From the IMG/VR virus record IMGVR_UViG_3300045988_073455: 64,000 bases of DNA; one strand, given 5' to 3'. Source of the stretch: a virus. The notes beneath the pieces were generated by a model that had not been told where the DNA came from, made no database searches, and was given only the letters and a program-made list of their open reading frames with translations. Every line of letters starts with the position of its first letter. Position 1 is the stretch's first letter. Both the position numbers and the translations under genes were made by a program. Shown here piece after piece: positions 23,823 through 51,802 of the stretch.

Positions 23823-25887
23823 CGATATAAAAAACAGAACATTTGGTATTGAAATCGAAATGTGCAATCTTGAAAGGGCGAAGGTAACTTTGCCCGAAGG
23901 TTACTCCTGGAGCAAGGAAGAGAGCATTGATAATACCGATTGTTCAAGCAATAAGCAGTTTGGTGGAGAGGTAAATACCCCTCCACTACATCTTTGCTGC
24001 CTAAAGGAATTGCACGACCTCCGCTCTGTATATGAATCAATGGTTGCTGCAGGTGGCAGGCTAAAATGGAGCATCTACACCCATGTGCACATTTATGTCG
24101 GTGATTTACCTGTTGATCAGATAAAGAAAGTATTCCTATTCTTCTATCTGTGTTACCATTATTTTAAGCAGTATGCTAAAATATCAGAATGCGATGAGCT
24201 TATATCCATAGCGATGCCAACTCCAACGGAAAAGTATTATAAAGGAGTCCTGCAGGCTCAGACTTTCGAGGATATTCAGAAGTTATTCACTAACAACTCA
24301 AACAAAGGTTTCATACGTCATGCAGTGAATATTTCTGCATATTTTAAGACAAAGACGATAGAGTTTAGACTTTATCATGCTACTGATGATTTCTATCAAG
24401 CTATGGCTTGTGTTCTTTCCACATACAGGCTATTTTATTACGCTATAAGCCACGAATTGGAGGATTTCAAATCAATTACATCATACCAGCAGTTCTGTGA
24501 GGTTACTGGGCTTAAATATGATGTTCCAGACGAATTATGTCCGCTAATCTACCAAGGAAATCCATACGACAAGGTAGAGTCGTATATGACAAAGCCTTTA
24601 CCATACAATTCTGAAATGGTTTCAGCTCTGTATGATGCTGTAAAAGCTAACGGACACAAGGAAATCTGCATAGTAAATGGCTTCATGTATTACTATGAGT
24701 TATTCTTCCTTGATAAGATGGAAGTATCTATATACTGCCAAGATGCCTACTGTTATCTGCTCTATATGTTGGCAAATGGTAAAACATCACTAACATATAA
24801 GGATAAGCTTGCATGGTTGGAGGACTATAACAATTCTACACCATCAAGACAGCTTGCTTTGGCTCTTTATGCGGTGAAACTGCAAAAGTATTTCATGAGT
24901 GAATCGGCAAGAAATAGTGCCATCTTCGAAGCGTTGAAAATTAAGGCAAGGGAATCTATCGAGAAAACCGAGGAGGCAAATGAGCGATTGATGAGATTAC
25001 TCACTACATGTGATTTCCATGTCGGAACACTAGAAGAAGCCATCAAGAATAAGAAGGTAATCTTCTTTAATTACGGAAGAATAGAGAAAAAGCAGAAGAG
25101 AGCATTCAAACTCATTTCTGAGAATAGTGACTTGAAATCAGACTTTTCTGTTGCAAGGAACGACTACTATAATCTTGTGGAAAGTATTCCGAGTGATAGT
25201 TATTTCTATTATTTCAGCAACAGCCCTTATCTGAGAAACCTGCATAAGATAGCTATGTGGAATAATTCAAGTGGGGAAAGACGGTCTGCAGGAAGGTTCC
25301 TATATTGCAATAAGCCAACTGCACAAAACAATGCAAGCACCTCGTATTCTTCATACAGAATCGAATGCAATGAGATAGTTCCTCCAGATGATTTGGAGAT
25401 TACAGACGCAAATAAGCTAAAGATTGAACGAGTAACCCCTCCTTTACTTCATTGCTTGCAAAAGAAGTATATCAAGAAGGTGGACCAATGTAGTGTCTGT
25501 CAATTTGCTTTTGTGGTGAAATACGACAAATATACCCTAGGTGGATTTGGTTTTACGCTACCTCAACACAAGGGGTATGATTTGTTTCAGTTAACGGACT
25601 TCTGCACGAATAACGCAATCCCTCGATTGAGTAAACTCATACTGTACTGCATTCAGTCTGTAGGCGTTCAAAGATATGTGAGCAGAAGAATGCGCAAGCT
25701 TTGCGAGAAGGTTATCTCCTGCGCTTATACCCATAAGCCAGTGAGTATGAAATATCGTGGCGTATACAAGAAAGTGAAGGAACACTGCACATCATCTTAT
25801 CTTGCTTACGAAGGAATACTTGGTATATACCCTACGAATAAGAAAATCATTGAGAAATATCAAAAATCGTTGAAGAATGGAAAATGA
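23809..25887 (+). CDS. Amidoligase_2 (GS-like COOH-NH2 ligase) fused to an approximately 460-aa uncharacterised C-terminal region
   Basis: 692 aa. The N-terminus has FGIEIEM...DNTD...GGEVNTPPL...THVHIY...HAVNISAYFKTKTIEFRLYHATDD. Its start overlaps the upstream gene by 14 nt. Confidence 0.65.
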   Translation: MNVDSDIKNRTFGIEIEMCNLERAKVTLPEGYSWSKEESIDNTDCSSNKQFGGEVNTPPLHLCCLKELHDLRSVYESMVAAGGRLKWSIYTHVHIYVGDLPVDQIKKVFLFFYLCYHYFKQYAKISECDELISIAMPTPTEKYYKGVLQAQTFEDIQKLFTNNSNKGFIRHAVNISAYFKTKTIEFRLYHATDDFYQAMACVLSTYRLFYYAISHELEDFKSITSYQQFCEVTGLKYDVPDELCPLIYQGNPYDKVESYMTKPLPYNSEMVSALYDAVKANGHKEICIVNGFMYYYELFFLDKMEVSIYCQDAYCYLLYMLANGKTSLTYKDKLAWLEDYNNSTPSRQLALALYAVKLQKYFMSESARNSAIFEALKIKARESIEKTEEANERLMRLLTTCDFHVGTLEEAIKNKKVIFFNYGRIEKKQKRAFKLISENSDLKSDFSVARNDYYNLVESIPSDSYFYYFSNSPYLRNLHKIAMWNNSSGERRSAGRFLYCNKPTAQNNASTSYSSYRIECNEIVPPDDLEITDANKLKIERVTPPLLHCLQKKYIKKVDQCSVCQFAFVVKYDKYTLGGFGFTLPQHKGYDLFQLTDFCTNNAIPRLSKLILYCIQSVGVQRYVSRRMRKLCEKVISCAYTHKPVSMKYRGVYKKVKEHCTSSYLAYEGILGIYPTNKKIIEKYQKSLKNGK

Positions 25888-28694: not shown

Positions 28695-29099
28695 ATGAAG
28701 AAAAAAGGATATTACGAATACGACCCTGTTATCTATCCGAGATTGTTATGTGTCGCTATTGGCATGAGCCAAGAAGACGCTAATAAGTGTTTTGAAGGTA
28801 GAAAAGGTGAGGTTTTGAAGGTTGATTTCTCTAATTATGAAGCAATAACCTACGATATAGTTAGAGAAAAGGCGAATAAGAGGCTTTGTGCATTTATTAA
28901 TTTTGCAAGCAAGGATTCTATGAAGATGAGGTGTTGTTGCCATGAAGCTTCTCATGCTTGCGATAACATCGAGAATGATATTGGTATGGAACACGGCGGC
29001 GAACCTTCTGCCTATCTGATAGGTTGGATTGCGTCTTGCATCAACAAGGCTCGTTTGGGTAATGGTGATTTTGTAGAGATTAAGGATAGAGAAAAATAA
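28695..29099 (+). CDS. small HExxH protein, paralog of 61746..62126
   Basis: 134 aa. CCCHEASHACDNIENDIGMEHGGEPSAYLIGWIASC aligns with THEMFHVVTHICESLGIDLKDEEPCYMMGWLCQA. Confidence 0.55.
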   Translation: MKKKGYYEYDPVIYPRLLCVAIGMSQEDANKCFEGRKGEVLKVDFSNYEAITYDIVREKANKRLCAFINFASKDSMKMRCCCHEASHACDNIENDIGMEHGGEPSAYLIGWIASCINKARLGNGDFVEIKDREK

Positions 29100-29112: not shown

Positions 29113-30627
29113 ATGTCAGAACAGAAAGCAATAAAAAAAATGATTGCATGGCGCAATGATTGGTGTCTCTTCGCTAAGGAAGTCTTGAAGGCTCGCCTTG
29201 ACGAAGAGCAAAAGGCTATATTGCGTTCTGTTCAAAAGAACAAAATGACAACGGTAGCCAGTGGAACTGCAAGGGGTAAGGACTTCATCGCTGCCGTAGC
29301 CGCTTTATGTTTTCTATACCTCACTCCTCGCTTCGGCAAGGATGGTAGTTTAGAAAAGAACACCAAGATTGCCCTTACAGCACCAACAGGAAGACAGGTA
29401 ACAAACATCATGATACCAGAAGTGGCACGTCTTTACAAAAAGGCAGGCTTCCTGCCTGGTCGTTTGCTGTCGGATGGCATCAGAACTGATTATGAGGAAT
29501 GGTATCTGACAGGTTTCAAATCTTCAGCCGACAACACAGAGGCTTGGTCGGGATTCCATGCTGTAAACACCATGTTCATCGTAACAGAAGCATCCGGTAT
29601 CTCGGACACCATCTATAATGCAATCGAGGGTAACCTGCAAGGTAACTCTCGATTGCTATTGGTATTCAACCCAAACGTTACTACAGGGTATGCAGCCAAC
29701 TCCATGAAGTCTCCCAGATTCAAGAAGTTTAGATTATCATCTCTCAACGCAGAGAACGTAGTAAGCAAGAAAAACATTATCCCTGGTCAAGTTGACTATG
29801 AATGGGTATCCGATAAGGTCTCAGCATGGGCACAGAAGATCAGAAAGTCTGAGTTTGATGAAGGTCGTGGTGATTTTGTGTGGGAAGGTGGATATTACAC
29901 TCCAAATGACCTTTTTCGTGTTAAGGTTCTCGGTATGTTTCCGAAGGTGTCCGAAGATACCCTCATTCCATACGAATGGTGCGAGATTGCCCATAGAAGA
30001 TGGAAGGAACTTAAAGATAGTGGCTTTATCACCCATAAGCCAATACGCTTAGGTGTCGATGTCGCAGGTATGGGTCGCGATAGGTCTTGCTATGTTCCAC
30101 GACAAGGAAATTATGTTTCAGAAATCAAGTGTCATAATTCGGGTGGTCATGCGGACCACATGGCAGTCGCAGGTCAAGTCGCACACTACCTAAGTTTGAG
30201 TTCAAAGAATAAAGCATTCATTGATACCATTGGAGAAGGTGCTGGAGTTTATTCAAGACTCATAGAGCAAAAGTATTTAACTGCATTCTCTTGCAAGTTC
30301 TCGGAAGGCGTGAGAAACAAGCATGATGTGACAGGCTGCTACTCTTTCGCTAACATGAGGGCTTATCTGTTTTGGTGCATACGTGACTGGCTCAACCCAA
30401 AGAATGGATTCTTTGCAGCACTCCCACCTGACGATGAGTTGGATCAAGAATTGTGCGAAGTGCATTGGCTGTTTCAGTCAGATGGTTCAATCATCATGGA
30501 ACCAAAAGACGAAATCAAGAAGCGTCTGAAACGTTCTCCCGACAAGATGGATGCCCTTGCCAACACCTTCTATCCATACGACTTCGATAGAGACAATGAT
30601 TTGCAATTGTTAAATAGTATAGTATAA
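29113..30627 (+). CDS. terL: terminase large subunit
   Basis: 504 aa. Has a Walker-A-like ASGTARGKDF, a Walker-B-like MFIVTEA, and the nuclease-domain start LGVDVAGMGRDRS. Confidence 0.8.
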   Translation: MSEQKAIKKMIAWRNDWCLFAKEVLKARLDEEQKAILRSVQKNKMTTVASGTARGKDFIAAVAALCFLYLTPRFGKDGSLEKNTKIALTAPTGRQVTNIMIPEVARLYKKAGFLPGRLLSDGIRTDYEEWYLTGFKSSADNTEAWSGFHAVNTMFIVTEASGISDTIYNAIEGNLQGNSRLLLVFNPNVTTGYAANSMKSPRFKKFRLSSLNAENVVSKKNIIPGQVDYEWVSDKVSAWAQKIRKSEFDEGRGDFVWEGGYYTPNDLFRVKVLGMFPKVSEDTLIPYEWCEIAHRRWKELKDSGFITHKPIRLGVDVAGMGRDRSCYVPRQGNYVSEIKCHNSGGHADHMAVAGQVAHYLSLSSKNKAFIDTIGEGAGVYSRLIEQKYLTAFSCKFSEGVRNKHDVTGCYSFANMRAYLFWCIRDWLNPKNGFFAALPPDDELDQELCEVHWLFQSDGSIIMEPKDEIKKRLKRSPDKMDALANTFYPYDFDRDNDLQLLNSIV

Positions 30628-30628: not shown

Positions 30629-30660
30629 TTTGCAAGATACAGAAAAGTTTTGTAACTTTG
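30629..30660 (+). promoter_or_regulatory. promoter of candidate sRNA R1
   Basis: TTTG at 30629..30632 and TAacTTTG at 30653..30660, 20-nt spacer. Confidence 0.55.
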
Positions 30661-30666
30661 CAGCCG

Positions 30667-30732
30667 AAACGTTACCTTTAACGTTTCATTGCTCTTAGTG
30701 CACTCCGACCGTGAGGTTAGAGTGCATTTTTT
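30667..30732 (+). ncRNA. candidate sRNA R1 (seed antisense to start-context motif I)
   Basis: 5' hairpin AAACGTT/AACGTTT. Then CGTTTCATTGCTCTTA (30682..30697), of which CATTGCTCTTA (30687..30697) is unpaired. Terminator stem TGCACTC/GAGTGCA followed by T6 (30727..30732). Confidence 0.5.
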
Positions 30733-30866
30733 ATTTAATATAAAGTAATTCAGAAAAAGACTATACACTTCAATATAAGCCTTTCTAAGCGGTTCATTTT
30801 TTATCTCCATATAACTTATACCATTTTTAAGAAATAGACTTACATACACAAAATTAATAGTTTGAC

Positions 30867-31014
30867 ATAAGTATCTGAATAACAATAAGTTAAACTAAGT
30901 TAGCAAAAAGTACTTTATGCTCAAAACATTTGGTCATTTGCAAAAAAATGATTACCTTTGCACTATCAAAAATAAAATAACAATTTAAAAGATAGGAGAT
31001 AAGAGCAATGAAAC
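30867..31014 (+). repeat. direct repeat copy R (orphan gene 3' end plus class I promoter plus leader)
   Basis: Near-identical to 21241..21382. It includes the last 32 nt of gene 21021..21272 without the rest of that gene. Confidence 0.85.
30929..30960 (+). promoter_or_regulatory. class I promoter copy 5
   Basis: TTTGGTCA at 30929 and TAccTTTG at 30953..30960. Confidence 0.65.
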
Positions 31015-33151: not shown

Positions 33152-33236
33152 ATTGCATCTTATCTTTCAAGGGAGGGCTGTGAAGTTCTCCCTTGATTAT
33201 TGAAATGAAAATAATTTCTCACTTTTTTTGCAAAAA

Positions 33237-33270
33237 CTATTTGTTGATTAAATAATATTTCGTATATTTG
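33237..33270 (+). promoter_or_regulatory. class II promoter copy 3 (structural operon)
   Basis: CTATTTGTTGATTAAATA at 33237..33254 and TAtaTTTG at 33263..33270. The upstream AAAATAATTTCTCACTTTTTTT is shared with the copy at 22011. Confidence 0.65.
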
Positions 33271-33277
33271 CACCCAT

Positions 33278-33378
33278 AAAAGCGTGTGAAGATGCACGTG
33301 ACAGAACTTTTCGTAACATTGCTCTTACACCGAGTTCTACGTTTGGTCTGCCTGCATTTCGCTCGCAGACCATTTTTT
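33278..33378 (+). ncRNA. candidate sRNA / terminated leader R2 (loop antisense to start-context motif I)
   Basis: Hairpin AGAACT(33303..08)/AGTTCT(33333..38) displays CATTGCTCTTA (33317..33327) in its loop. Terminator GGTCTGC/GCAGACC (33345..33371) followed by T6 (33373..33378). Confidence 0.5.
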
Positions 33379-33400
33379 GTTAAATATAACTCAACAAGCA

Positions 33401-34135
33401 ATGAACAAGTATTACAGAAAAGTTCTTGAAGCACTGAAAACCAATCGAGACATTAAGGCATTGGGGTTCAGTCGTAAGGAGTTAAAGGGTGTTGCCGCCA
33501 ATGTTGCCAACAAACTTCAACTCAAAGATGATGCTACTGACGAAGAAGTTAGTGAAGGTATTAGTGACGCAATTGATGATGTCTTGCCGTTACTCCAGTT
33601 AACTCAGTCCGCAGCTGACCGCCAAGTCTCAGAGTACAAAAACGCTCATCCTGCACCCGATGATGACGATGATCCAGATGACGATCCAGATGATGATGAC
33701 GATCCAGCACGTAGAAGTCCGTCACGGAAGGGCAAGAAGGGCAAGAAGGATAGCGATGATGATGACTCCGCTACCCTCAACGCAATCAAGGAACTTACGA
33801 AGGCTGTTGCTACACTCCAAGGTGATGTAACTGCATTGAAGTCTGGCAATACCACAAACAGCCGTACCGCAAAGGTAAGGGAACTGCTGAAGGACACAGG
33901 TAAGTTCGGAGAGCGTCGACTTAAATCTTTCTCTCACATGAAGTTTGAGAATGAAGAGGAGTTTGAGGACTACCTCGATGAGTTGAAGGAAGATATTGAG
34001 GAAGAGAACAAGGAAAGACTTGAAAAGGGTCTTGAAAAGCTTGGACGAATCCCTGCTCCCGATACCAAACCTCAGCCAAAGGAGGAAGATAAGTTAATGT
34101 CTGATGATGAAGTCAAGAGGCTGGCTAAGATGTAA
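33401..34135 (+). CDS. putative scaffolding protein
   Basis: ATG at 33401 within track ORF 33377..34135. Highly charged and helical, with a D/P low-complexity tract (DDDDDPDDDPDDDDDP). Lies upstream of the capsid gene. Confidence 0.55.
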   Translation: MNKYYRKVLEALKTNRDIKALGFSRKELKGVAANVANKLQLKDDATDEEVSEGISDAIDDVLPLLQLTQSAADRQVSEYKNAHPAPDDDDDPDDDPDDDDDPARRSPSRKGKKGKKDSDDDDSATLNAIKELTKAVATLQGDVTALKSGNTTNSRTAKVRELLKDTGKFGERRLKSFSHMKFENEEEFEDYLDELKEDIEEENKERLEKGLEKLGRIPAPDTKPQPKEEDKLMSDDEVKRLAKM

Positions 34136-34168
34136 TCATCTATTGTTTCACTAATAAATTATTAGATT

Positions 34169-34570
34169 ATGGTAGCAGAAGACTACAAGCCAAAAACCAA
34201 AGGCTACGACATGGGTAAGGACGCTGTGGTTATCCGTCAGTATCTCGGTGGTATCACAGGCGGTAGAGCACTCGACTACGCCAACTTCAAGGATGAGGTT
34301 ATTCAGGCAGGTCACATCATTGTCCGCAAGAAGGTTGATGATGTTTATGAGTATTCTCCACTTGAAACCGAAGGCGGTAAGTACAAAGACAAGACTAGTG
34401 ATGCAGAATTTGCTGGTGTTGTTGTTCGCTCACGCATGAAGGGTGAAGCGGTTGCCATTATGGATAATGGTCGCGTGAATGATGTTGCAATGCCTTATCA
34501 GTTCAAGGACGGAACTCAGAGAACCGCCATCAAGACCGCTCTCCCAAGTCTTATTTTTGAGCATGACTAA
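34169..34570 (+). CDS. hypothetical head-associated protein
   Basis: 133 aa, between scaffold and major capsid genes. Confidence 0.45.
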   Translation: MVAEDYKPKTKGYDMGKDAVVIRQYLGGITGGRALDYANFKDEVIQAGHIIVRKKVDDVYEYSPLETEGGKYKDKTSDAEFAGVVVRSRMKGEAVAIMDNGRVNDVAMPYQFKDGTQRTAIKTALPSLIFEHD

Positions 34571-34606
34571 GTTGTGCTCTAGTTTTTAACTTAAAAGATT
34601 GTTTAT

Positions 34607-35968
34607 ATGAACGAATCACTTTTTATTCAGTTTATTCGTGCTATCTTCCCTAAACTTAGCTTGTATGTTAAGGAGAAGGAGAATCCGAAGGAGCGCACCT
34701 ACCTCTACAAGGAGATGCTTACCGATGTGTATTCTGCCGATCAGAAATGGGAAGGTTCATCAGCTAAGACCACATATGTAGCTGCCGACATCGTTGAGAT
34801 GGATTCAGACATTCCTTTGAAGAAGCGTGGTCAAATCGCAACCTCTAATGGTAAGTTGCCAAAGATTGCGATGAAGAAGATTCTCATGGAGTCTGACATC
34901 AACAACATCAACATTATGAAGGCTCAGTACGAGAACCTTGTAGCAAGAGCCAACTCATTCCAGGCGCAAGGTTTGGTTGAGCAGGCTGCATCAACACGAC
35001 AGGCTGCTGAAACTGCAAAGGCTCGTATCATCAACAAGCTCATGAATGATGGTGTCGCTTGCTCTGTCGGTCTCGAAGAGCGTAACGAAATGAACTTCTT
35101 GGCTGGTCTCTCTAATGGTATTATTGCCGTTGAAGATGCAGACAATTCGGGTAAGGCTATCCGTGTTGACTATGGTTACATGAAGGCTAACTCTTTCAAA
35201 ACAGCAACCAATGGTGTTACTACCCGTGATGATTTCGAGAAAATCTTCGAAAAGGCAAATGCTGATGGTAATACCATCATACAGGTTATGCTCGCTAAGA
35301 CGCAGATTAAGAAAATCCGCAAGGAGCAGTGGGCGAAAGAACTTGTTGCCGACTACGAGGGTAAGACTTATACCGAAAATACCAAGCTCAAGACACCATC
35401 GGAGTCAGCTTTCTCGGAAGCATTCGAGGATGAGTTCGGTGCAGCCATCAAGGTTATCAACAGAACCGTGATTATCGAGAAGAACGGAAAGCAGCACTCT
35501 CTCAAACCATGGAATGAGGATAACATTATCTTCATCTGTAACACCAACGTAGGCTCTTTCGTTTGGGGTACCCTTGCAGAGGACACCAACCGAGTAGCAG
35601 GTGTTCAGTACTCTAACGTTGACAGCTACAAGCTTATCTCTAAGTACTCCAAGAATGAGCCATCTTTGCAGGAGGTTACCGCAGGACAGGCTATCTGCTT
35701 GCCAGTAATCGAGGACGTAGATCAGATTTACATGCTTACTACCAAGTCTGAGGAGGTTGATACAGAAGCCGAGACAGACGATACTACCGATCAGTATACA
35801 ACTTACAAGGGTAAGAAGTATAATAAGGCTAACCTCATCGCTGCTTTGAAGGCTGCTGGTGTCAATGTGAAGACTAACTCAACCGATGAGACTCTGATTA
35901 AGGCTCTCAACTCACTCAGCGATGAGGAGGAAGCCGAAGTTCTCTCTAAACTCACTCCAGAGGTTTAA
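34607..35968 (+). CDS. major capsid protein
   Basis: 453 aa, positioned after the scaffold gene. The C-terminal approximately 65 aa form an acidic linker plus helix-rich tail. Confidence 0.6.
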   Translation: MNESLFIQFIRAIFPKLSLYVKEKENPKERTYLYKEMLTDVYSADQKWEGSSAKTTYVAADIVEMDSDIPLKKRGQIATSNGKLPKIAMKKILMESDINNINIMKAQYENLVARANSFQAQGLVEQAASTRQAAETAKARIINKLMNDGVACSVGLEERNEMNFLAGLSNGIIAVEDADNSGKAIRVDYGYMKANSFKTATNGVTTRDDFEKIFEKANADGNTIIQVMLAKTQIKKIRKEQWAKELVADYEGKTYTENTKLKTPSESAFSEAFEDEFGAAIKVINRTVIIEKNGKQHSLKPWNEDNIIFICNTNVGSFVWGTLAEDTNRVAGVQYSNVDSYKLISKYSKNEPSLQEVTAGQAICLPVIEDVDQIYMLTTKSEEVDTEAETDDTTDQYTTYKGKKYNKANLIAALKAAGVNVKTNSTDETLIKALNSLSDEEEAEVLSKLTPEV

Positions 35969-35979
35969 TTTGAATTGAT

Positions 35980-36303
35980 ATGAAGACAATAAAGCAAGCA
36001 TTGATTGATGAAATCCACTACCCTATCCCTTTAGGATTCGTGGAGAATAAGATGATAGAACGTCAGCTTAATGGTGATGATGAATATACATTCGAGGTCG
36101 CTCAGTCCAAGGAATGGAAAGGTGCGCTTGCTGATTGTCTGTACTCTCTCATACAAGCTGTAAGCTTATCCGAGTCAGACAAGAGCATTGGAACACTATC
36201 TGACAAGGATAAGGAAAGGCTGCTAGTGCGAATAAATGCTTTATACAAAACCATCGGTGAATCCCCTGCACTGGGTCAACCGATGGTTTATATAGGAGGT
36301 TAA
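35980..36303 (+). CDS. head-tail connector/adaptor protein
   Basis: 107 aa, first gene after the capsid gene. Called by position. Confidence 0.45.
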   Translation: MKTIKQALIDEIHYPIPLGFVENKMIERQLNGDDEYTFEVAQSKEWKGALADCLYSLIQAVSLSESDKSIGTLSDKDKERLLVRINALYKTIGESPALGQPMVYIGG

Positions 36304-36306
36304 GAT

Positions 36307-36639
36307 ATGGCTGTATTGGATTTCGCTGCTCATACCCTAGATTACCTACACGTAACTGATGGGTATGAAGACGATAACGGAGACTATGTTCAAGGCTCAG
36401 AAGAATGGGTGGAGAACTATTGTAAGTGTGATATTGTTCCTGCTGGCAAGGCAAACGTTATCACTATCCCCGATGGTTCTGCAAAGAACTATTCCTACAC
36501 CATCTACAACCTTCCTAGAGCATGCCGAGATTTCGAGTACGGAGACAAAATCCGTGTAAAGCTCTTCGGAAACGAAGTGAAGGAATTTGTTGTACTCGGC
36601 TTTCATCGTTATCAACTGCAATGTAAAATATGGGTATAA
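36307..36639 (+). CDS. head closure / head-tail joining protein
   Basis: 110 aa. Called by position. Confidence 0.4.
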   Translation: MAVLDFAAHTLDYLHVTDGYEDDNGDYVQGSEEWVENYCKCDIVPAGKANVITIPDGSAKNYSYTIYNLPRACRDFEYGDKIRVKLFGNEVKEFVVLGFHRYQLQCKIWV

Positions 36640-37112
36640 AACTCTCAACCTCTCAGTCTGCGCTCGATAACTTTTTTCAGTCCGCTATGGCGATAATAAA
36701 GCAAGAAATCCTCACTGCTTATGCCAAGCTAGGAGAAGAATGTAATGCAAGGATAAGAGATCGCTCGGCAGAGGAAAGTTGGATAGACCATACAGGAAAC
36801 CTACGAAGCTCCATCGGTTATGCCATCTTTGACTACGGAAGGAAACAAGTAGAATCAGCCTTTGCTTCCATAGGCAATGGTTCTAATGGTTCACAAGAAG
36901 GAAGACAAATGATAGCTGACCTAGCCAAGGAATACTCACAGGTTTACGCATTGGTAGTAGTCGCGGCTATGAACTATGCAGACTTTGTAGAAGCTAAAGA
37001 AAATAAAGATGTGCTTGCATCCACTGAGTTATGGGCTCGTTCCGTCGTTGATGGTAAACTAAAGCTCGCTGTGGATAAAGCTGTAAGTAGAATCAATCAG
37101 ATAAAGCTATGA
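36630..37112 (+). CDS. HK97 gp10-like tail-connector protein
   Basis: 160 aa. WIDHTGNLRSSIGYAI resembles the gp10-family motif. Confidence 0.5.
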   Translation: MGIKLSTSQSALDNFFQSAMAIIKQEILTAYAKLGEECNARIRDRSAEESWIDHTGNLRSSIGYAIFDYGRKQVESAFASIGNGSNGSQEGRQMIADLAKEYSQVYALVVVAAMNYADFVEAKENKDVLASTELWARSVVDGKLKLAVDKAVSRINQIKL

Positions 37113-37528
37113 AATCGGATATTGATATTAAGGATGATGTGTACAACATTATCTCTTCTTCGAAATTAAAGACTGCTGTAACAGGTAGTCTTTGCAAGCG
37201 AGGAAGACCATTCTATGGAACAGGTACAACTGGCAAGGAAGATATTTGCATCTCAGTGCTAGCAAATCAAACCTCGCAAATCCAAGAAGCTTTCGTGAAT
37301 GTAAACATCTATGTTCAAGATCAAGCTATCACAAAGAAAGGCAATACCCGAAAGGAAGAGAACACGGCAAGGCTCCGTGAGTTATGCCAACTCTCTTTCT
37401 ATACCTTCGAAGCAGTTCATGGATCGGATTTCCGTTTGTCTATGAGCGAACAGAGGGTAATAGCTTGCGAGGGCACAAGAGAGCACATCATTAATAACAA
37501 ATTATTGTATCAAACTATAAACGATTAA
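37109..37528 (+). CDS. tail completion/terminator protein
   Basis: 139 aa. Called by position. Confidence 0.4.
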   Translation: MKSDIDIKDDVYNIISSSKLKTAVTGSLCKRGRPFYGTGTTGKEDICISVLANQTSQIQEAFVNVNIYVQDQAITKKGNTRKEENTARLRELCQLSFYTFEAVHGSDFRLSMSEQRVIACEGTREHIINNKLLYQTIND

Positions 37529-37532
37529 GATT

Positions 37533-38135
37533 ATGTCAGTAATAACATGGGGAAAACCATCCATCTATGTTCGTGACCTTAGTGTTGCAACCAACAACTG
37601 GAAGAAGCTTGATACTCCAAAGGAGAACACTACTCAGTTGAACCCTACCAAGGGTGATACAACAGAAGCTAAGGAGGAAGGTGGCGGTATTGTCGATTCC
37701 AAGACAGCTAAGTCCACCTACGAACTCGTTTATCAAGAGTTCATCAAGAAGGGCTTATCTCAGCCTTTCCCTACCATTGATGGACTTATCGAAGGAAACT
37801 ACGCTATCGCTGTTCAGCCGGAAGATGCAGAGAACCCTGGCTGCTATATCGGCAAGTCAACCGTAAGCGTGGAGGAGTCATATTCTTCAGCGGATGGTGC
37901 TTTGATGCAGTACACCCACAAGGCTCTTGTGCCAGAGGGTGACGAGGTAGCAAAGACCACCAACAAGAAGGGTGAGACCGTATATTGTCAGTTCCGTTGG
38001 CGCATCATCACAGCCAAGAAAGCTAAGGGTAAGACTGATGAATATGTTCTTACATTCAAGCATCCTGCAGGTGCTACAGACACAACAACGGAGATAACTG
38101 TTCCAACAAACGGACAGGTCGAAGGTGGCGCCTAA
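37533..38135 (+). CDS. major tail protein
   Basis: 200 aa, the last gene before the chaperone and tape-measure region. Confidence 0.5.
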   Translation: MSVITWGKPSIYVRDLSVATNNWKKLDTPKENTTQLNPTKGDTTEAKEEGGGIVDSKTAKSTYELVYQEFIKKGLSQPFPTIDGLIEGNYAIAVQPEDAENPGCYIGKSTVSVEESYSSADGALMQYTHKALVPEGDEVAKTTNKKGETVYCQFRWRIITAKKAKGKTDEYVLTFKHPAGATDTTTEITVPTNGQVEGGA

Positions 38136-38194
38136 GGCAATATGTTGATTTCTTCTCACCCTTCAGCCGATTGAGGGTTATCAGTCGGCAACCT

Positions 38195-38302
38195 ACCCAA
38201 GTAGCTCAGTTGGTTAGAGCGAGACCAAAGTCCGTCACATGAAATCCAGTTGGTCTTTAAAAAGCTGGTTGAAAGACGCAGGTTCGAGTCCTGCCTTGGG
38301 TG
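38195..38302 (+). ncRNA. tRNA-like element with expanded, non-canonical anticodon/variable region
   Basis: Acceptor ACCCAAG/CTTGGGT, D arm GCTC-AGTTGGTTA-GAGC and T arm GCAGG-TTCGAGT-CCTGC are canonical. The 51 nt between them (38222..38272) do not form a 5-bp/7-nt anticodon arm. Confidence 0.55.
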
Positions 38303-38322
38303 CTAACAAATATTATTGGCTT

Positions 38323-39045
38323 ATGAAGAATGACATCGAAATTGGCGCTATTATAGCCATGGTGTTAACAGATACACCTCTAGGCATACAGGTAGGTAGA
38401 AGGCACATGTTCATCTACCCTCAGACTTTAGGCAAGATGTATTTGACAGCTCCACTGATTAAGCTGCTAGGCATCAAAGATGATAACCTAAAGCTAAATC
38501 CCCTCATTGAAGCACTCCGTGTAGTAGGTGAGAATCGAAGTCTCTGTTGTAAGCTAATAGCCTACCACACCCTTCAGAAGAAATCCGATATGCTCAGTTC
38601 ACGCATATTGAAGGCAAGGGAAAACATCATCTTCAAGTTCTGTGATAACGATGATATAGCTACTCTTCTCATCACCATACTCTCAGATAACAAGCTTCAC
38701 GACATAATCACGGAATGTGGGATAGACAAGGAAGCAGAGCGTATGGAGAAGATAAACCAAGCCAAAGACTTCAGCAATCAGTATATCTTTGGTGGCAGAA
38801 CCATTTGGGGCTCTCTCATTGACGCAGCTTGCGAGAGATATAAATGGACTCTTGACTATGTTCTGTGGGAAATCTCATACAACAACCTCACGCTTATGAT
38901 GAAGGATAAGATAACTTCCATCTATCTATCCGATGAGGAAAGAAAGAAGGCTCACATTCCATCAGCAACAGAGAAGGTCTTCAGCGGAGATAACAAAGAG
39001 GACATCATGGAGCTGATCAGACAGAGCGAAGAAAATCCAATTTAA
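38323..39045 (+). CDS. putative tail assembly chaperone
   Basis: ATG at 38323 (MKNDIEIG...). The upstream part of track ORF 38239..39045 overlaps the tRNA-like element. Lies before the tape measure gene. Confidence 0.45.
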   Translation: MKNDIEIGAIIAMVLTDTPLGIQVGRRHMFIYPQTLGKMYLTAPLIKLLGIKDDNLKLNPLIEALRVVGENRSLCCKLIAYHTLQKKSDMLSSRILKARENIIFKFCDNDDIATLLITILSDNKLHDIITECGIDKEAERMEKINQAKDFSNQYIFGGRTIWGSLIDAACERYKWTLDYVLWEISYNNLTLMMKDKITSIYLSDEERKKAHIPSATEKVFSGDNKEDIMELIRQSEENPI

Positions 39046-39119
39046 CCTCCAACACAAAAAGTAAAGAATAAAGGTTTGGCTGAGGAGGTGCACCTTTACG
39101 TAATTGACAGAATAAAAAA

Positions 39120-42100
39120 ATGGCAAGTATCAAGTTTGACATAACAGGCGATAATTCATCCGTACTGAAAGCCTTTCGAGGGGTGCAGGATGGGGTGTCA
39201 CAGACAGCAAGAGTAGTCGAGCAGCAGGGTCAGAGCATTGAGAACGTTTTCAATCGCATCAAGTCTGTTGCATCGGTAGCTTTTGCTGGGTTCACGGCAA
39301 AGGAAATCATCAGCACACTGGGTACTGTCCGAGGAGAGTTTCAGCAGTTTGAGATTGCCTTTGAAACCATGCTCGGTAGTGGACAGAAGGCAAAGGGAAT
39401 GATTTCGGACATCGCCAACCTTGCTGCTACTACTCCTTTTGACATGAAGGGTGTGGTAAATGGCGCAAAGCAGCTCCTTGCATACGGATTTGCAGCCAAC
39501 GAGATTACCGATACAATGAGAAGGCTCGGTGACGTATCTGCAGGATTGGGATTGAACTTGCAGGACCTCACATGGCTCTATGGTACCACGATGGTACAAG
39601 GTCGATTGTTCACAAGAGACTTGATGCAATTTACAGGTCGCGGTATTCCTTTGACAGAGGAACTTGCCAAGCAGTTCGGAGTTACCGAGGATAAGGTTTC
39701 GGAATTGGTGACAGCAGGTAAGGTAGGTTTCCCCGAAGTTAAGAAGGCTATCGAAAGCCTTACCAATGAAGGCGGCAAGTTCGGTGGATTGATGGAAAAG
39801 CAATCTCACTCTATTACGGGTCAGATAAGCAATATACAAGATACCATCGAAATGGCTATCAATGACCTCGGCACACAGACCGAAGGCTTGATGAATGATG
39901 CTTTGGATATCACATCTAAGGTTATCGACCATTGGAAGGAGATAGGTGAGGTTATCCTTGCAGCCGCATCTGCCATCGGTCTTTATAAGGCAATGGCAGT
40001 TAGTATAGCAGCCTTTGACACAGCAACAACAAATGCAGGATATGCAGCCGAGTTGTCAGCTCTTGAATCTTTGCTCCCTATGAAGGAAGAAGCAAAGAAG
40101 ACAGACCTTGAAGAAGCAGTAGCCAAAGGTCAATTATCAGCAGCACAGGCAGAGTTGGTAGCATCTAAGCGTGAAGAGGTCGCGGCTTATGTTGCCGAAC
40201 TACAGGCGCAGGCAAAAGCAAAGGCAGACGCAGCCACCGCAGCCGCAGAGGAAGTGAAGGCATTGGAGAACAAACTTGCAATGCAGGACAATGAGGTCCA
40301 ATCACTCCAAGATGCTTACGATGCCCTGCAATCCTATACAGACGGGCAGAAGGTAGAGACAGCAGAAATCAAACTCAATACTGCCGTTAACGAAAGGAAC
40401 ACCATCGCAAAGCAACTCCAAACGGCTAGAGAAACTGCTGCAACCGCAGCCACAGAAGCAAATACAGCAGCCAATGCGGCTAACACTGCATCCCAAGGTT
40501 TGAATACCGCAGCTACCGCAAGAGACACCGCAGCCAAAGGAATATGGGCACAGGTCACCCTTCTCTGCAAAAGGGCACAGGACGCATGGAATGCTTCTAT
40601 GTTCTCAAGTCCTCTTTTTTGGATAGCTGCCACCATCGCAGCAGTAACCTATGCCGTATATAAGCTAGCTACCGCAGAAACGGCACATGAAACGGCAGTA
40701 AGGAAATCCAATGAAGCATGGGATGAGTTTGATAACAAGGTCAAGGAACGTCAGCAGAATATCGAAAGCCTTATCAGAACTATTCAGTCTGAGACAGCTA
40801 CAGAATACGAGAAGGCAGAAGCTTACCAAAAACTCTCCAACCTCGCACCTCAGTTAACGGAGCAATACTCACAAGCTCAACTTGCATCTGCCGATTTTGC
40901 TAAGACGCAGAAGGAAGTTGCCGAGAGCATGGATGAGTTGAAGTACGACAAGGCAGTTGAGGAAGTTGAGAAGTATCGAAAGAAGGTTGAGGAGCTTCAA
41001 ATGCAACTCAGAGCAGACGCAGCCAATGGCGGTCAAGGTAGCATCGCTATCTCATCACAGATAAGCCAAGTCCAAGCAGACCTTGATCAAGCAGAAGAAA
41101 AGCTTTCCAATATCATCCAACTTCGAGACCAAGCAGCCGAGAACGCAAAGCCTATCGAAGTTCGCTTGCAAGAAGCACAGGAGAACGAAAGTGTACGTCA
41201 AGAAATCTTTGACTTCTATGACGAAGCAATCAATCTGGCTAACGATTGGCAAGCTGCCAACGAAACCATCAACTACGCCACAGGTGAGAGTAGATTGGAT
41301 GCGTTCATCAATAAGGCTCAGAAAGAGATAGCAGGTCTTCGAGAAGACATCAAGAACAATCCTGCTGATCTGAATCTCCGCATGCAGGAGTCTGAGAAAA
41401 CAAAGGTTCTGAACAACCTCTTAACTATGAAGCGGAATTGGGCGGTCACAGGCGCAACGACCATTCCTTTGATTTTCAAGGCTCAATGGAATACAGCCAA
41501 ACAATCCCTCAACCAAGCAAAAAAAAGAGCACAAGCGTTGGCTAACAATGGTTCTACGGAAACCTATCAGCAAGCTTACAACAGGACGCAGCGTGAATAT
41601 AACGCAGCCAAGAGGAGGGTTGCTGCTATGGAGAGAAATAAGAGCAAATACACCGCCGCTCAGTACGAAACCGCCACCCAAAACTTGAAAGCAGCCAAGG
41701 ATGCCTACTCGAAACTAGGTGGTGATGTAAGTGGAAGAGCGGCAAAGACAGTAGCAACGGCACATAAGAATCGCATCAAGGAAGAGAACAAGACTATCAA
41801 GGCTCAAGAGGATTTAAACAACCGCTTGAAGACTTTGCAGCAGAAAAATACAGATGAAACTATCTCCCTCATGCAGGAAGGCACGGAGAAGAAACTTGCT
41901 CAAATCAAGAACGACTATGCCAAGCGCAAAGCCGAGATTGACAAGCAGGAAGCAGAGTTCAAGAAGAAAAACAAGGAAGCTGGCAAGAAAGTAACCCTTA
42001 CCTCTGCTCAGTCCAATGCCCTCAATAAGGCTAGAGACCTCGCTACCCAAGAGTATAACAAGAAGCTTGATGAGGTCAACAGGGAAGCCCTCACCTCTAT

Positions 42101-44276
42101 GCGTGACTACTTGAAGGAGTATGGTTCACTCTATCAGCAGAAACAAGCCATTGCCGAGGAGTATGAAGAGAAGATTGCCAAGGCTCAGACGCAGGGCGAA
42201 AAGCTATCTCTTCAGCAGCAGAGAAAGAAGGACCTCCAAACCATCGAGATAAATGCCATCAGACAGAACATCGATTGGGGAAGCGTCTTCGGAGACTTCG
42301 GTACTATGTTCAAGGACCAACTAGAGCCTACCATTGAGAAGCTGCAAGAGCTCTCCAAGAGCACAACAGATGTCAATGAGCAGAAGACCATACAGGAACT
42401 TATCTCCAAGTTACAAGGCTCTGCCACCATCTGGAATAGTGACATCTTTAAGAAAGTATCTGACGACATCAACTCCTATCAGTCAGCCATGCAGGGCTAT
42501 ATTGATGCACAGGAGCGAGAGATTGAAGCCACGAAAGCTGTCACCAAGGCGCAGGAAGACCTCGCCAAGGCTAAGAAGAGCGGTGACAAGACAAGTATCA
42601 GCAAGGCTGAAGCCAACCTCTCTAGAGCGCAGGGCGTACTTGCTACCGCATCTAACAGCGTTTTGGAGTTCGGTTCATCAGTTCAGAAGGCATCATCAGA
42701 CTTGCAGACATCAGCACAGAAGGCAGTTTCTCAGTTTCAGCAGCTTGAAAATGGTTTGCAGGGTCTTACATCGGGGTCGCTCAAAGGCATAGGAAACTCT
42801 ATCCTAGGGCTTGACAAGCTTTTCGGTGGCTCTATGCAGAAGGACGTTGCCAACACGCTTGCAAAGGGCATCCAAGGGTTGCTCGGTAAAGATAGTGACG
42901 CAGCCAAATCTCTGACGAAAGCTTTAGGGGATAGCGGTATGGCAGGTGAAATAATCTCAGCAATACTCGGTATCCTCGATATTCTGAAAGATGGCTTCGG
43001 AACACTCATCAGCAACCTCATGGACACGGTCTTTGGCGTAGTAACGGGCATCCTCGATGATGCTTTATCGGGTGACATCGTTATGAAACCATTGAAGAGT
43101 ATCGGGAACAACGTTTCTCATATCCTCAACACGCTTTCATTCGGTGGCTTTAATAGTCTGTTCGGTGGAGACGGAAATGCAAAGAAAGTCAATGATACCA
43201 TCGAAAGGCTGACGGATAGAAATACCCTCTTGCAGCAATCCATCGAGGATTTGACTGATGCAATGGAAAACTCCTATGGTTCCAAGGCAACCTCATACTA
43301 CGAGCAAGCCTATAAGAATCAGCAGGAGACCAATCAGAACTACCTAGACATCGCAAAAGCGCAGGCAAGCTATCACGGTTCGCACGGCTCATGGAATCGC
43401 TATTGGGGTGGCTTCGGTAGTGATGAGATGGATTGGATCAAGAAGAACGTCAAATCAGACTTCAATGGCGACCTATTCTCCCTTAGTCCAGAGGAAATGA
43501 AGCTCCTCCGTGGCAACGTTGCTATCTGGAATCACATTGAGAACACTGGAAAGGGTAACTATGGTGGGCGTCTGACAGAGAAGCTGAATGACTACATAGA
43601 CCAAGCGGGCAAGCTGGATGAGTTATCAGACAAGCTGAAGGAAAGCCTTACGCAGATTTCCTTTGACAGCATGAAGGATAGCTTCGTATCAGACCTTATG
43701 GATATGAGCAAGTCAGCGCAGGATTTCGCAGACGATTTCTCCGAAATGATGCAGAAGGCTCTTCTCTCCTACTCTATGGAAGACCTCATCAACGGCGACT
43801 TGAAGAAGCTCTATGATGATTGGGCAAAGGCTATCGAGGACAACGATGGCAAGCTTACCGAAACAGACATAGAAGCATTCAACAAGCGTTACGATGATAT
43901 AGTCCAGGAAGGATTGAAGAGACGTGACGAGTGGGCAAAGGTAACAGGCTACACCGGTTCCTCATCCTCATCACAGACCGCAACAAGCGGAGGATGGGCA
44001 TCTATGGGGCAAGATACCGCGGACGAGCTGAATGGTCGCTTCACCGCCCTGCAGATTGCAGGAGAGTCAATCGCTCAGAACATGACTACCACCATATCAC
44101 AGATGGAGAGCATCGTTACACTCGGAATCTCAACCAATGGCGCAGTATTGGAGATTAGAAACATGATGATTATGACAAACAGCTACCTCGAAGACATCGT
44201 GAAGTATTCAAAGCTTACCTATAATGACTTCGGAGCCAAGCTGGATGACATGAACAGAAGATTAAAGGATATTTGA
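39120..44276 (+). CDS. tail tape measure protein
   Basis: 1718 aa with long Ala/Gln/Lys-rich coiled coils and the core motif LYGTTMVQGRLFTRDLMQFTGRGIPL. Confidence 0.85.
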   Translation: MASIKFDITGDNSSVLKAFRGVQDGVSQTARVVEQQGQSIENVFNRIKSVASVAFAGFTAKEIISTLGTVRGEFQQFEIAFETMLGSGQKAKGMISDIANLAATTPFDMKGVVNGAKQLLAYGFAANEITDTMRRLGDVSAGLGLNLQDLTWLYGTTMVQGRLFTRDLMQFTGRGIPLTEELAKQFGVTEDKVSELVTAGKVGFPEVKKAIESLTNEGGKFGGLMEKQSHSITGQISNIQDTIEMAINDLGTQTEGLMNDALDITSKVIDHWKEIGEVILAAASAIGLYKAMAVSIAAFDTATTNAGYAAELSALESLLPMKEEAKKTDLEEAVAKGQLSAAQAELVASKREEVAAYVAELQAQAKAKADAATAAAEEVKALENKLAMQDNEVQSLQDAYDALQSYTDGQKVETAEIKLNTAVNERNTIAKQLQTARETAATAATEANTAANAANTASQGLNTAATARDTAAKGIWAQVTLLCKRAQDAWNASMFSSPLFWIAATIAAVTYAVYKLATAETAHETAVRKSNEAWDEFDNKVKERQQNIESLIRTIQSETATEYEKAEAYQKLSNLAPQLTEQYSQAQLASADFAKTQKEVAESMDELKYDKAVEEVEKYRKKVEELQMQLRADAANGGQGSIAISSQISQVQADLDQAEEKLSNIIQLRDQAAENAKPIEVRLQEAQENESVRQEIFDFYDEAINLANDWQAANETINYATGESRLDAFINKAQKEIAGLREDIKNNPADLNLRMQESEKTKVLNNLLTMKRNWAVTGATTIPLIFKAQWNTAKQSLNQAKKRAQALANNGSTETYQQAYNRTQREYNAAKRRVAAMERNKSKYTAAQYETATQNLKAAKDAYSKLGGDVSGRAAKTVATAHKNRIKEENKTIKAQEDLNNRLKTLQQKNTDETISLMQEGTEKKLAQIKNDYAKRKAEIDKQEAEFKKKNKEAGKKVTLTSAQSNALNKARDLATQEYNKKLDEVNREALTSMRDYLKEYGSLYQQKQAIAEEYEEKIAKAQTQGEKLSLQQQRKKDLQTIEINAIRQNIDWGSVFGDFGTMFKDQLEPTIEKLQELSKSTTDVNEQKTIQELISKLQGSATIWNSDIFKKVSDDINSYQSAMQGYIDAQEREIEATKAVTKAQEDLAKAKKSGDKTSISKAEANLSRAQGVLATASNSVLEFGSSVQKASSDLQTSAQKAVSQFQQLENGLQGLTSGSLKGIGNSILGLDKLFGGSMQKDVANTLAKGIQGLLGKDSDAAKSLTKALGDSGMAGEIISAILGILDILKDGFGTLISNLMDTVFGVVTGILDDALSGDIVMKPLKSIGNNVSHILNTLSFGGFNSLFGGDGNAKKVNDTIERLTDRNTLLQQSIEDLTDAMENSYGSKATSYYEQAYKNQQETNQNYLDIAKAQASYHGSHGSWNRYWGGFGSDEMDWIKKNVKSDFNGDLFSLSPEEMKLLRGNVAIWNHIENTGKGNYGGRLTEKLNDYIDQAGKLDELSDKLKESLTQISFDSMKDSFVSDLMDMSKSAQDFADDFSEMMQKALLSYSMEDLINGDLKKLYDDWAKAIEDNDGKLTETDIEAFNKRYDDIVQEGLKRRDEWAKVTGYTGSSSSSQTATSGGWASMGQDTADELNGRFTALQIAGESIAQNMTTTISQMESIVTLGISTNGAVLEIRNMMIMTNSYLEDIVKYSKLTYNDFGAKLDDMNRRLKDI

Positions 44277-44377
44277 CCTCTATAGGCTTTTCGCTCGTCA
44301 ACCCTTACAACTATACTCAACAATAGAAAAAGCGGCTCACAGCGAAGCCTATGAGGTTATTTAATGATTAAATAGTT

Positions 44378-44821
44378 ATGCTTAAAGGACAACTTTACAT
44401 AAATGGCAAGGATGCCTATCTTACGTGGGGCATATTCTTAGACGAAACTGCCCTCAGTGCGCTCATGACCCCTGCACCAAACAAGGAGTTCATCAGCAAC
44501 AAGTATCGCTCAAAGGACGGAAAGTCGGTTATCAAGCACAATCCTAGATTGGATGAGAGGGAGATAACGCTGCCGTTCAATATGACCGCCAAGGACTCAG
44601 ATACGTTCTTGATGAACTATGCTAGGTTCTGCGAGGAGGTTCTTGCCAAGGGAGAATTGGTTATCCGCACCCGATTCCAGCCTAATGTGTGGTATCGGTG
44701 TATCTATCTCTCCTGCACTCAGTTTAGTCAGTGCATTCGGGAAATGGCAAAGTTCAGCCTAAAGCTCAACGAGCCAGACCCTAGTGACAGAGGTGAAACA
44801 AGTAAATACGCAAGCTCATGA
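44378..44821 (+). CDS. distal tail protein-like
   Basis: 147 aa, directly after the tape measure gene. Its stop overlaps the next gene. Confidence 0.45.
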   Translation: MLKGQLYINGKDAYLTWGIFLDETALSALMTPAPNKEFISNKYRSKDGKSVIKHNPRLDEREITLPFNMTAKDSDTFLMNYARFCEEVLAKGELVIRTRFQPNVWYRCIYLSCTQFSQCIREMAKFSLKLNEPDPSDRGETSKYASS

Positions 44822-47889: not shown

Positions 47890-47908
47890 AAAATAGGAGA
47901 TTAAAAAT

Positions 47909-48988: not shown

Positions 48989-48999
48989 GAGGAACACTT

Positions 49000-50223: not shown

Positions 50224-50248
50224 TATGTATAATTAAAAAATATAAGAT

Positions 50249-51472: not shown

Positions 51473-51492
51473 GCCAACGCTAGGTGTTGGCT
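51472..51492 (+). promoter_or_regulatory. hairpin immediately 3' of VR (DGR target-recognition-type stem-loop)
   Basis: AGCCAAC-gctaggt-GTTGGCT. It overlaps the stop codon. Confidence 0.55.
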
Positions 51493-51682
51493 GCATATCT
51501 GCCAGTGAGCTAGACAGAAATAGAGAATTAATAAAAATAATGTAAAACGCAAGATTGAAACTACAAAGTTGAAATCTCCTTATAATAGGATTCGCAGAAG
51601 CACAAAAATATAAACAACCCATTTTCGTGCGATAAGATTTTCTACAACCATGGAGTGGGTGAAGAAAAGGTGATACATCATG

Positions 51683-51802
51683 GAGCTGCTGAACGTTGGG
51701 GGGAACGCTGACAACAGGTCGCAATGCGGTCTTTCGTATGCGAACTCGAACAACGGTTTCTCGAACTCGAGGACGAACATCGGCGCTCGCTTGAATTACT
51801 AC
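51683..51802 (+). repeat. DGR template repeat (TR)
   Basis: In the VR frame the TR has eight AAC codons and one AAT. About 29 adenines in total. Followed by an approximately 300-nt non-coding spacer before the RT gene. Confidence 0.9.

Follow-up and report, generated by a model that had tools for sequence, protein, structure and literature searches.

What is the role of a leader that starts at a late-type promoter, meets a terminator directly before the head-tail genes and exposes the exact complement of early start sites in a hairpin loop? This question is raised by the element R2 in a window of 64,000 nucleotides, the whole stretch of DNA analyzed, from the virus record IMGVR_UViG_3300045988_073455. 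A preliminary description had offered two readings, which need not exclude each other: the short RNA silences the translation of early genes, or it is a terminated leader and the structural genes are reached by read-through. The reading we prefer joins both. As judged from sequence comparison, R2 may attenuate the late operon and, in its terminated form, serve at the same time as an RNA against early start sites, a proposal that we hold with about even confidence; its attenuator part is well supported.

Promoter, fold and terminator of the R2 leader

The Bacteroidota promoter pattern TTTG-N17-23-TAnnTTTG has 13 matches in the window, compared with 2.7 expected, and the actual spacers are N19-21. 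The match upstream of R2 (Table 1) displays the sigma-A-type arrangement of this phylum, -33 TTTG and -7 TAnnTTTG about 19-21 nt apart, and its boxes were read at 33240-33270, as expected for the third class II promoter copy that had been placed there. It has TTTGTTGATTAAATA in common with the copies at 12771, 22042 and 56959. Class II promoters stand before the genes for portal and head morphogenesis, before the terminase and head-tail operons and before the lysis genes. Class I promoters (TTTGGTCAtTTGCAAAAAAATGAtTACCTTTG) are located at 1924, 10732, 17820, 21303 and 30929 (+), and their modules contain small genes without known function, ArdC-like anti-restriction, RadC and similar genes. 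When we speak of early and late genes, we go by the gene content of the class I and class II modules, not by timing data. The class I promoters also carry a palindromic conserved spacer, TCATTTGCAAAAAAATGA, between -33 and -7, which looks like an operator as far as its sequence goes. In the relatives, a palindrome (TATTTGAA/TTCAAATA) covers the -33 region of class II promoters and is accompanied by a conserved upstream block.

The RNA predicted from the R2 promoter (33277-33380) would fold into three hairpins with a free energy of -30.8 kcal/mol (z = -2.9). From promoter to terminator it is a discrete unit of about 103 nt, a length within the range of small RNAs (about 50-300 nt). Hairpin 1 is followed by hairpin 2, in which AGAACT (33303-33308) pairs with AGTTCT (33333-33338) around a 24-nt loop (33309-33332), exactly the 6-bp hairpin that had been proposed. 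In the minimum-energy fold this stem grows to 7 bp and an inner GUAA/UUAC stem forms, which leaves CAUUGCUC in the apical loop of 8 nt. The third hairpin is the terminator. Here GGTCTGC (33345-33351) pairs with GCAGACC (33365-33371), an additional U33344-A33372 pair extends the stem, and T6 (33373-33378) follows. A G+C-rich hairpin with a U-tract directly after it on the transcribed strand is characteristic of intrinsic terminators; the R2 hairpin reaches -15.7 kcal/mol, compared with -14.8 kcal/mol for the operon-end terminator at 56889 and -18.2 kcal/mol for that of the related unit R1. A simple terminator scan missed it solely owing to its 13-nt loop. The ATG of the first structural gene at 33401 lies 23 nt past the end of the T-run, so that stem, T6 and distance of the clean terminator claimed to end at 33378 were all borne out. 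The ATG of the supposed scaffold gene was likewise in place; the name scaffold follows from position and composition only, phrog_5824 being without an assigned function.

No alternative antiterminator pairing within R2 was evident, the consensus fold consisting of three independent hairpins. In Rfam 15, R2 had no match at the gathering threshold, nor at E <= 10 on the + strand, and a literature search brought up no relevant report on the motif or on such an element in Bacteroides phages. Taken together, every feature of the preliminary description was found where it had been placed, far beyond chance.

The leader had also been called about 100 nt long and ORF-less. The length was correct; the absence of an ORF was not, as ATG 33292 opens a frame of 45 codons, which is not conserved. 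Translation of this small ORF might control formation of the terminator, and an ATG (TTG in many relatives) is indeed present in the hairpin 1 loop, with the frame of the window crossing the terminator. However, among the relatives the ORF comprises 12-45 codons, stops at unrelated positions and changes its frame through indels. Moreover, its start is ACG in the L413 clade, the loops are shortened at this place in L378 and L380, and the start codon sits within a conserved hairpin. Leader-peptide attenuation is thus very improbable and was rejected as not conserved.

Relatives were gathered in four ways: the scaffold-like protein yielded 68 loci, and capsid homologues (82-57% identity), a DNA pattern of the 5' hairpin and a capsid profile compared with metagenomes supplied the others. 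Apart from L427, all loci whose upstream flank was long enough had R2 5' of the scaffold-like gene according to a covariance model built from 23 distinct leaders, with capsid identities as low as about 57%. The leader was better conserved than the coding DNA next to it: identity to the window amounted to 73-87% for the leader, 64-74% for the scaffold gene, 65-76% for the capsid gene and 57-65% for the promoter region. The distance between -7 box and hairpin 1 was 9-11 nt in all relatives. Among 41 distinct leaders, 97.7% of the cells were in standard pairs, and 8 of the 21 pairs (46 cells) had changed on both sides. This combination of pairing and double changes was reached by none of 500 shuffles, and slid controls were paired to 24-53%. 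Compensatory changes concerned three of the six pairs of hairpin 1 (GC to AU in diverged clades), two pairs of the outer stem of hairpin 2 and three pairs of the terminator. The alignment was fitted to the covariance model and thereby favours structure; the compensatory changes are nonetheless visible in the raw sequences. In hairpin 1, GCGUGU/GCACGU is replaced by GCGUAU/GUACGC or GCAUGU/GCAUGC, and in the terminator GGUCUGC/GCAGACC is replaced by AGUCUGC/GCAGACU or GCUCUG/CAGAGC. The terminator was kept in all relatives, with a U-run of 4-9 after the stem in nearly all of them and a weak one in L071.

The diverged hairpin 1 variants came from capsid-anchored metagenome loci. A degenerate search for leaders without hairpin 1 (ACAGAAC..GTTCT..GGTCTG) returned only chance matches and known copies. 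In the metagenome relative L379 (1640-1762) the terminator stem reads AUUGCUCUG/CAGAGCAAU, and its arms mimic the seed and the start tag described below. A weak match to the R2 covariance model at 24332-24440 (+; 27.7 bits, E of about 4e-4 by rough calibration) lies inside the amidoligase ORF at 32% G+C and is probably spurious.

These compensatory changes, together with a seed that is kept in variable loops, strengthen the proposed anatomy of late-type promoter, structured leader, anti-start loop and terminator. On this comparative basis, R2 is very probably a real structured leader with a terminator. No further promoter match was found from 33270 to 53124, and strong + strand terminators do not occur inside the head-tail operon. 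This suggests that the head-tail genes depend on read-through of the R2 terminator, which expression of the structural operon probably requires. Of the two original readings, the terminated leader is hence the better supported one: its terminator is kept in every relative and has the strength of an operon-end terminator, and no other promoter match lies between it and the structural genes.

The loop seed and the start tag of early genes

The loop of hairpin 2 had been described as antisense to a start motif. In fact, the seed CATTGCTCTTA is the exact reverse complement of that motif, and the match of 12 bp with gene 11626 (GTAAGAGCAATG) is correct. On the + strand, CATTGCTCTTA occurs twice, compared with 0.012-0.022 copies expected. 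Both copies fall into the approximately 9% of the window that is non-coding, about 25-45 nt past a promoter match and directly 5' of a hairpin with a U-tract. The seed is predicted to be unpaired with a probability of 0.95 in the clade of the window.

The sense motif, counted on both strands with <=1 mismatch, occurs 15 times where 2.3 are expected. Its exact form TAAGAGCAATG has 11 + strand copies in the early modules, 10 of which supply the start codon of an ORF, and near-exact versions are found at four more starts. Apart from the example in Table 1, exact copies are located at 1998, 10797, 11110, 11618, 17883, 18521, 21368, 21659 and 31430, and copies with one mismatch at 1540 and 20478. 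The tag (T/A)AAGAGCAATG marks about 15 early genes, all in class I promoter modules, and recurs in all six relatives with listed gene starts, down to 57% capsid identity. At 11110 (TAAGAGCAATGAAATG), the ATG at 11118 is out of frame with the ORF starting at 11123, 5 nt downstream of the tag, which points to a miscalled start or to a real start overlapped by a very short ORF. Six early genes in a run at 7930-9910 (+) share another start context, (A/G)TAGC(G/T)TATG, which is distinct from this tag.

Read on the minus strand, the seed is itself a tag copy and might be a real gene start or an inverted relic of a recombination junction without RNA function. Its ATG (33319) opens a frame of 23 codons, and the tag might mark the boundary of a module. 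At R1, however, the corresponding frame has only 3 codons, the 23-codon frame at R2 overlaps the promoter and is broken in relatives with different loops, and the one minus-strand promoter match of the whole window is far off. Furthermore, the element is a structured + strand RNA with covariation. A minus-strand gene start without a promoter was consequently rejected, and we give this explanation in either form next to no credence.

Among the relatives, the loop of hairpin 2 has between 19 and 64 nt, with flanks conserved to 35-65%. The core CATTGCTC is exact in 29 of the 41 leaders and retained in at least 7 of 8 positions in 36. At least 8 contiguous nucleotides are complementary to the early consensus AAAAGATAAGAGCAATGAAA in 33 of them. 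In L378 and L380 the stem of hairpin 2 has been replaced, yet (C)ATTGCTCTT stays in an exposed region. CAT, which is complementary to the start codon, belongs to the conserved part of the seed; the TTA end is variable. Predicted duplexes between the R2 loop and tagged starts range from -14.6 to -21.1 kcal/mol, compared with a median of -8.4 kcal/mol over 96 starts.

The start of the putative scaffold gene (AACAAGCAATG) bears a partial tag with a 7-bp complement to the R2 loop. The loop might therefore pair with this start (AGCAATGAA) about 75 nt downstream, in the read-through RNA or in trans, and set translation of the first gene. Most lineages have a partial tag at the scaffold start that forms 7-9 bp with the loop. 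In L077 (8684-8830; 59% capsid identity) the loop has lost the early seed and reads CATCACCTTAC, of which 10 of 11 positions are complementary to its own scaffold start GTAAAGTGATG, a match that we estimate to arise by chance with a frequency of about 0.002 per lineage. In every lineage but L077, however, the complement to the early tag is the longer one. The complement to the own start is only 4-6 nt in L073, L075, L076, L078, L090, L378, L380 and the L413 clade. Most lineages with such a weak own-start match have an early-tag complement of 7-12 nt, and L078 and L090 have one of only 6 nt. In the L413 clade the scaffold start has no tag and the early-tag complement is still kept, and at least 7 nt of it remain in L075, L076, L378 and L380, whose scaffold starts have lost the tag as well. 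Regulation of the own operon start is accordingly a quite unlikely function of the loop.

The second copy of the seed belongs to R1, a unit directly after the terminase stop (Table 1) with a predicted RNA of about 70 nt, a 5' hairpin of 9 bp and a fold z-score of -7.5. The R1 linker TCATTGCTCTTA was present in 69 of 70 loci fetched without reference to the seed, and the remaining one had a C-to-T change that would still allow wobble pairing. Between clades the R1 stems are fully changed with pairing kept, and five of the eight terminator pairs are compensatory. R1 is widespread in viral contigs and shares many of them with R2. On other contigs, gene starts with the full 16-nt complement CACTAAGAGCAATGAA were found, also together with R1 on the same contig. 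In Rfam, R1 had a single match below threshold, BTnc201, with 23 bits compared with a gathering score of 105. By its sequence features R1 makes a convincing stand-alone small-RNA gene with an anti-start seed, and the identical seed in R2 is for this reason unlikely to be accidental. That the R2 seed acts in trans on early start sites seems possible on these grounds, at slightly less than an even chance.

Attenuation with and without repression in trans

Several observations weigh against a trans-acting R2. Predicted accessibility of the seed is only 0.24-0.6 in several other lineages and below 0.5 in about one third of all lineages. Damaged or different R2 seeds occur in L037 (G to C), L067 (5-nt deletion), L073, L075, L078 and L145 (partial) and L077 (replaced). 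R1 is kept in L037, L067, L073 and L077, and is intact in the first three. As these genomes are otherwise intact, the R2 seed must be dispensable at least where R1 remains. Covariation between seed and target is uninformative because the tag is invariant across the six relatives. In addition, the sequences of hairpin 1 and of the terminator loop hardly vary, a constraint beyond the needs of a small-RNA scaffold, which suggests that they may be recognized by some factor. Finally, about 95 ORFs, many of them without a family, were scanned with Pfam (E <= 0.01), and no Q, N, NusG/KOW or sigma family was among the matches listed (25 of 32 families in one scan). As far as these scans reach, they agree with the earlier statement that no antiterminator is recognizable. 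The silencing of early translation that had been suggested thus fits the conservation of the seed and the existence of R1, and less well the loss or damage of the R2 seed in lineages keeping R1.

A leader that only attenuates would account for part of this. Hairpins 1 and 2 might bind a phage or host factor or act on the polymerase in the manner of nut, put or LoaP/UpxY-like elements, and the likeness of the loop to the early tag might be a recognition part or an R1-like relic without a role in trans. The conserved terminator, the near-invariant hairpin 1 and terminator loop and the natural R2 seed mutants are all consistent with this. The loop of the window also contains TGCTCTTA, the E. coli/lambda boxA consensus ((C/U)GCUCUU(U)A), and the GAAGA-type loop of hairpin 1 resembles boxB of lambda nutL. 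The conserved part of the loop, however, is CATTGCTC including CAT, and the TTA half needed for boxA varies (CATTGCTCATT, ..GCA, ..ACT, ..AAA). Since the relatives keep CAUUGCUC and not the UUA half, a boxA/boxB nut site was rejected and is retained as a resemblance only. Moreover, the seed outlives replacement of the hairpin 2 stem and a three-fold change in loop length, which is unexpected for a structured protein site, and the identical seed is present in R1, which precedes no operon. The lack of N, Q, NusG and sigma families in the Pfam scans speaks against attenuation alone, too, and we consider it unlikely on balance.

For the combined reading, in which R2 attenuates the late operon and may repress early genes, we infer the following course of start, termination, timing, read-through control and repression from the features, conservation, covariation and complementarity described above. 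Host RNA polymerase would start at the late-type promoter at 33240 and make the three-hairpin RNA of about 100 nt. It would then meet the intrinsic terminator before the first structural gene, and most transcripts would stop there. The structural operon of 23 kb would be reached only by read-through, which might be leaky or brought about by a phage factor or a modified polymerase. The apical loop of the released R2 would show CAUUGCUC(UUA), and in the approximately 15 early genes sharing (U/A)AAGAGCAAUG it could pair with the start codon and the 8 nt preceding it. R2 and R1 together would keep ribosomes from binding to early messages as soon as late transcription is under way, or in the lysogen. 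Lambda PR' is active in the lysogen (PMC7547250), and if the promoters of R1 and R2 behave alike, both RNAs could add to immunity. We tentatively propose that this phage family tags its whole early regulon with one exact start sequence and shuts it off through R1, at the 3' end of the terminase operon, and R2, in the head-tail leader; as a complete scheme this is still rather doubtful.

Parts of this scheme have counterparts in other phages and bacteria. The small phage RNAs P22 sar, lambda OOP, P1/P7 c4 and P4 CI RNA base-pair with lytic genes of the phage itself, at ribosome-binding regions or at complementary boxes. Two of them, c4 and CI, are processed from leader transcripts and work in trans on short complements that are repeated. 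All these RNAs have one or two targets, whereas one R2 seed of 8-11 nt faces about 15 genes in three early modules. The genes of sar and OOP lie opposite their targets, that of R2 elsewhere in the genome. T4 RegA brings about a coordinated shut-off of early messages by occluding initiation regions, the outcome proposed here for R2. RegA, however, is a protein of loose specificity, while the proposed effector in R2 is an RNA directed to an exact tag. Like R2, rnTrpL of Sinorhizobium and SreA/SreB of Listeria are prematurely terminated 5' leaders that double as base-pairing regulators; they are metabolic leaders of cells with a ligand or peptide sensor, and no sensor is evident in R2. The promoter-proximal leader of the lambda nut/N system shares with R2 the boxA consensus and a GAAGA-type hairpin loop. 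In R2, the 3' half of the boxA-like sequence is not conserved and the 5' half with CAT is kept. R2 also differs in the order of these parts and in their embedding in a hairpin loop, and an N-like gene could not be recognized.

The layout of R2 is most readily compared with PR'-6S-tR' of lambda and Stx phages, where a late promoter is followed by a terminator within about 100-200 nt and then by a very long structural or lysis operon, and where the short transcript may regulate (PMC7547250). Both have a terminator that separates the late promoter from the structural genes, but a Q-family gene was not found among the approximately 95 ORFs scanned with Pfam. The promoter grammar of R2 is that of Bacteroidota, and R2 shows no identified Q-binding element or sigma-dependent pause, for which no consensus applicable to the Bacteroidota polymerase exists. 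The small RNA StxS, derived from the late leader of an Stx phage, acts on host targets through Hfq (PMC7547250), whereas the R2 seed matches early start sites of the phage itself. Among Bacteroides RNAs, MasB/BTnc201 (PMC10994844; RF04177) has the layout of R1, with a 5' hairpin, a single-stranded region and a terminator; its Rfam score to R1 is far below threshold and R2 has no Rfam match at all. R2 thus works like PR'-tR'/StxS in layout and like c4/CI/sar in the logic of its seed, and would resemble RegA in outcome. It is a member of none of these, as neither a Q gene nor a conserved boxA nor an Rfam family was found. Phage regulation in the Bacteroidota phylum is essentially uncharted.

The phage, its genome and its host

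Table 1. Positions of R2, R1 and associated features in the window.
Feature	Position	Strand	Description
Upstream element of class II promoter	33205..33239	+	conserved, AAAATAATTTCTCACTTTTTT...; near-identical 5' of the 22042 copy, similar 5' of the 56959 copy
R2 promoter (class II copy 3)	33240..33270	+	sigma-A-type; -33 TTTG 33240-33243, 19-nt spacer, -7 TATATTTG 33263-33270
R2 leader RNA	33276..33378	+	about 103 nt; 5' end placed about 5-7 nt past the -7 box, 3' end placed at the T-run (both deduced)
Hairpin 1	33282..33299	+	GCGUGU-GAAGAU-GCACGU, extreme 5' end of R2
Hairpin 2	33303..33338	+	outer stem AGAACUU/GAGUUCU, inner stem GUAA/UUAC, 8-nt apical loop
Anti-start-site seed	33317..33327	+	CATTGCTCTTA, exact reverse complement of the early start tag TAAGAGCAATG
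R2 intrinsic terminator	33344..33378	+	8-bp stem UGGUCUGC/GCAGACCA, internally structured loop, U6
First head-tail operon gene, putative scaffold	33401..34135	+	acidic, 244 aa, phrog_5824 (function not assigned)
Example target, tag of early gene 31008	31000..31010	+	TAAGAGCAATG
R1 unit	30629..30736	+	promoter 30629-30660, 5' hairpin 30666-30687, single-stranded seed CATTGCTCTTA 30687-30697, terminator and U6 30697-30733
SPP1-type portal gene	12820-14250
Large terminase gene	29113-30627
Major capsid gene	34607-35968

Nearly all long ORFs of the window are on the + strand. In addition to terminase, capsid and portal, the window encodes an endolysin, integrase domains and a reverse transcriptase domain, which together identify a temperate tailed phage. 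Prevotella genomes carry exact copies of the R2 5' hairpin, one of them on a 395-kb contig of P. vespertina A2879, which identifies Prevotella as the host. The window is a prophage or temperate siphovirus of this genus. In the annotated phage collection the single match was an unannotated fragment of 96.5% identity, and no cultured relative was closer than 27% capsid identity.

The region 55000-64000 constitutes a lysogeny and diversity module with the integrase domains, probably carried by the minus-strand ORF 62637-63809, an HTH_17/MerR protein at 56562-56903 and the reverse transcriptase domain, which suggests a diversity-generating retroelement. Within the structural operon, at 38195-38302 (+), Rfam indicated a tRNA-like element of 108 nt (47 bits) that overlaps the start of ORF 38239. 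ARAGORN found nothing at this position, where a tRNA-like structure or a tRNA interrupted by an insertion might lie.

Two proteins of the window resemble RNA-binding families. An early protein of 108 aa (4470-4796, +; start context GGTGAGCAATG) matches Pfam PF24203, the Phage ProQ C-terminal-like domain, over its full length with 30.1 bits compared with a cutoff of 27, and is by this similarity a possible RNA-binding helper. To our knowledge, Bacteroidota hosts are without Shine-Dalgarno-led initiation, Hfq and ProQ. Just 5' of the terminase gene, a protein of 134 aa (28695-29099, +) has a sub-threshold match to RRM_1 (E = 0.009; 16 bits compared with a cutoff of 20.7) that is probably noise. 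The small-RNA partners known in Bacteroides are RRM proteins (PMC11697453).

For phages of the Bacteroidota, the dominant phylum of the gut, R2 provides a concrete conserved RNA element at the boundary between early and late genes with two testable functions, gating of an operon and translational silencing of a whole regulon. Relatives of the phage are present in the cultured strains Prevotella vespertina A2879 and Prevotella sp. KH2C16. We know of almost nothing established about the timing of gene expression in these phages. If the proposed action in trans is true, the 11-nt tag and its seed would represent an orthogonal switch for engineering Prevotella and Bacteroides. R1 and R2 would then be an RNA counterpart of T4 RegA built into late transcripts, and, as the tag is shared across the family, their production by a prophage could give cross-immunity against related superinfecting phages. 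This would be the first phage to control an entire temporal class of genes by a base-pairing RNA.

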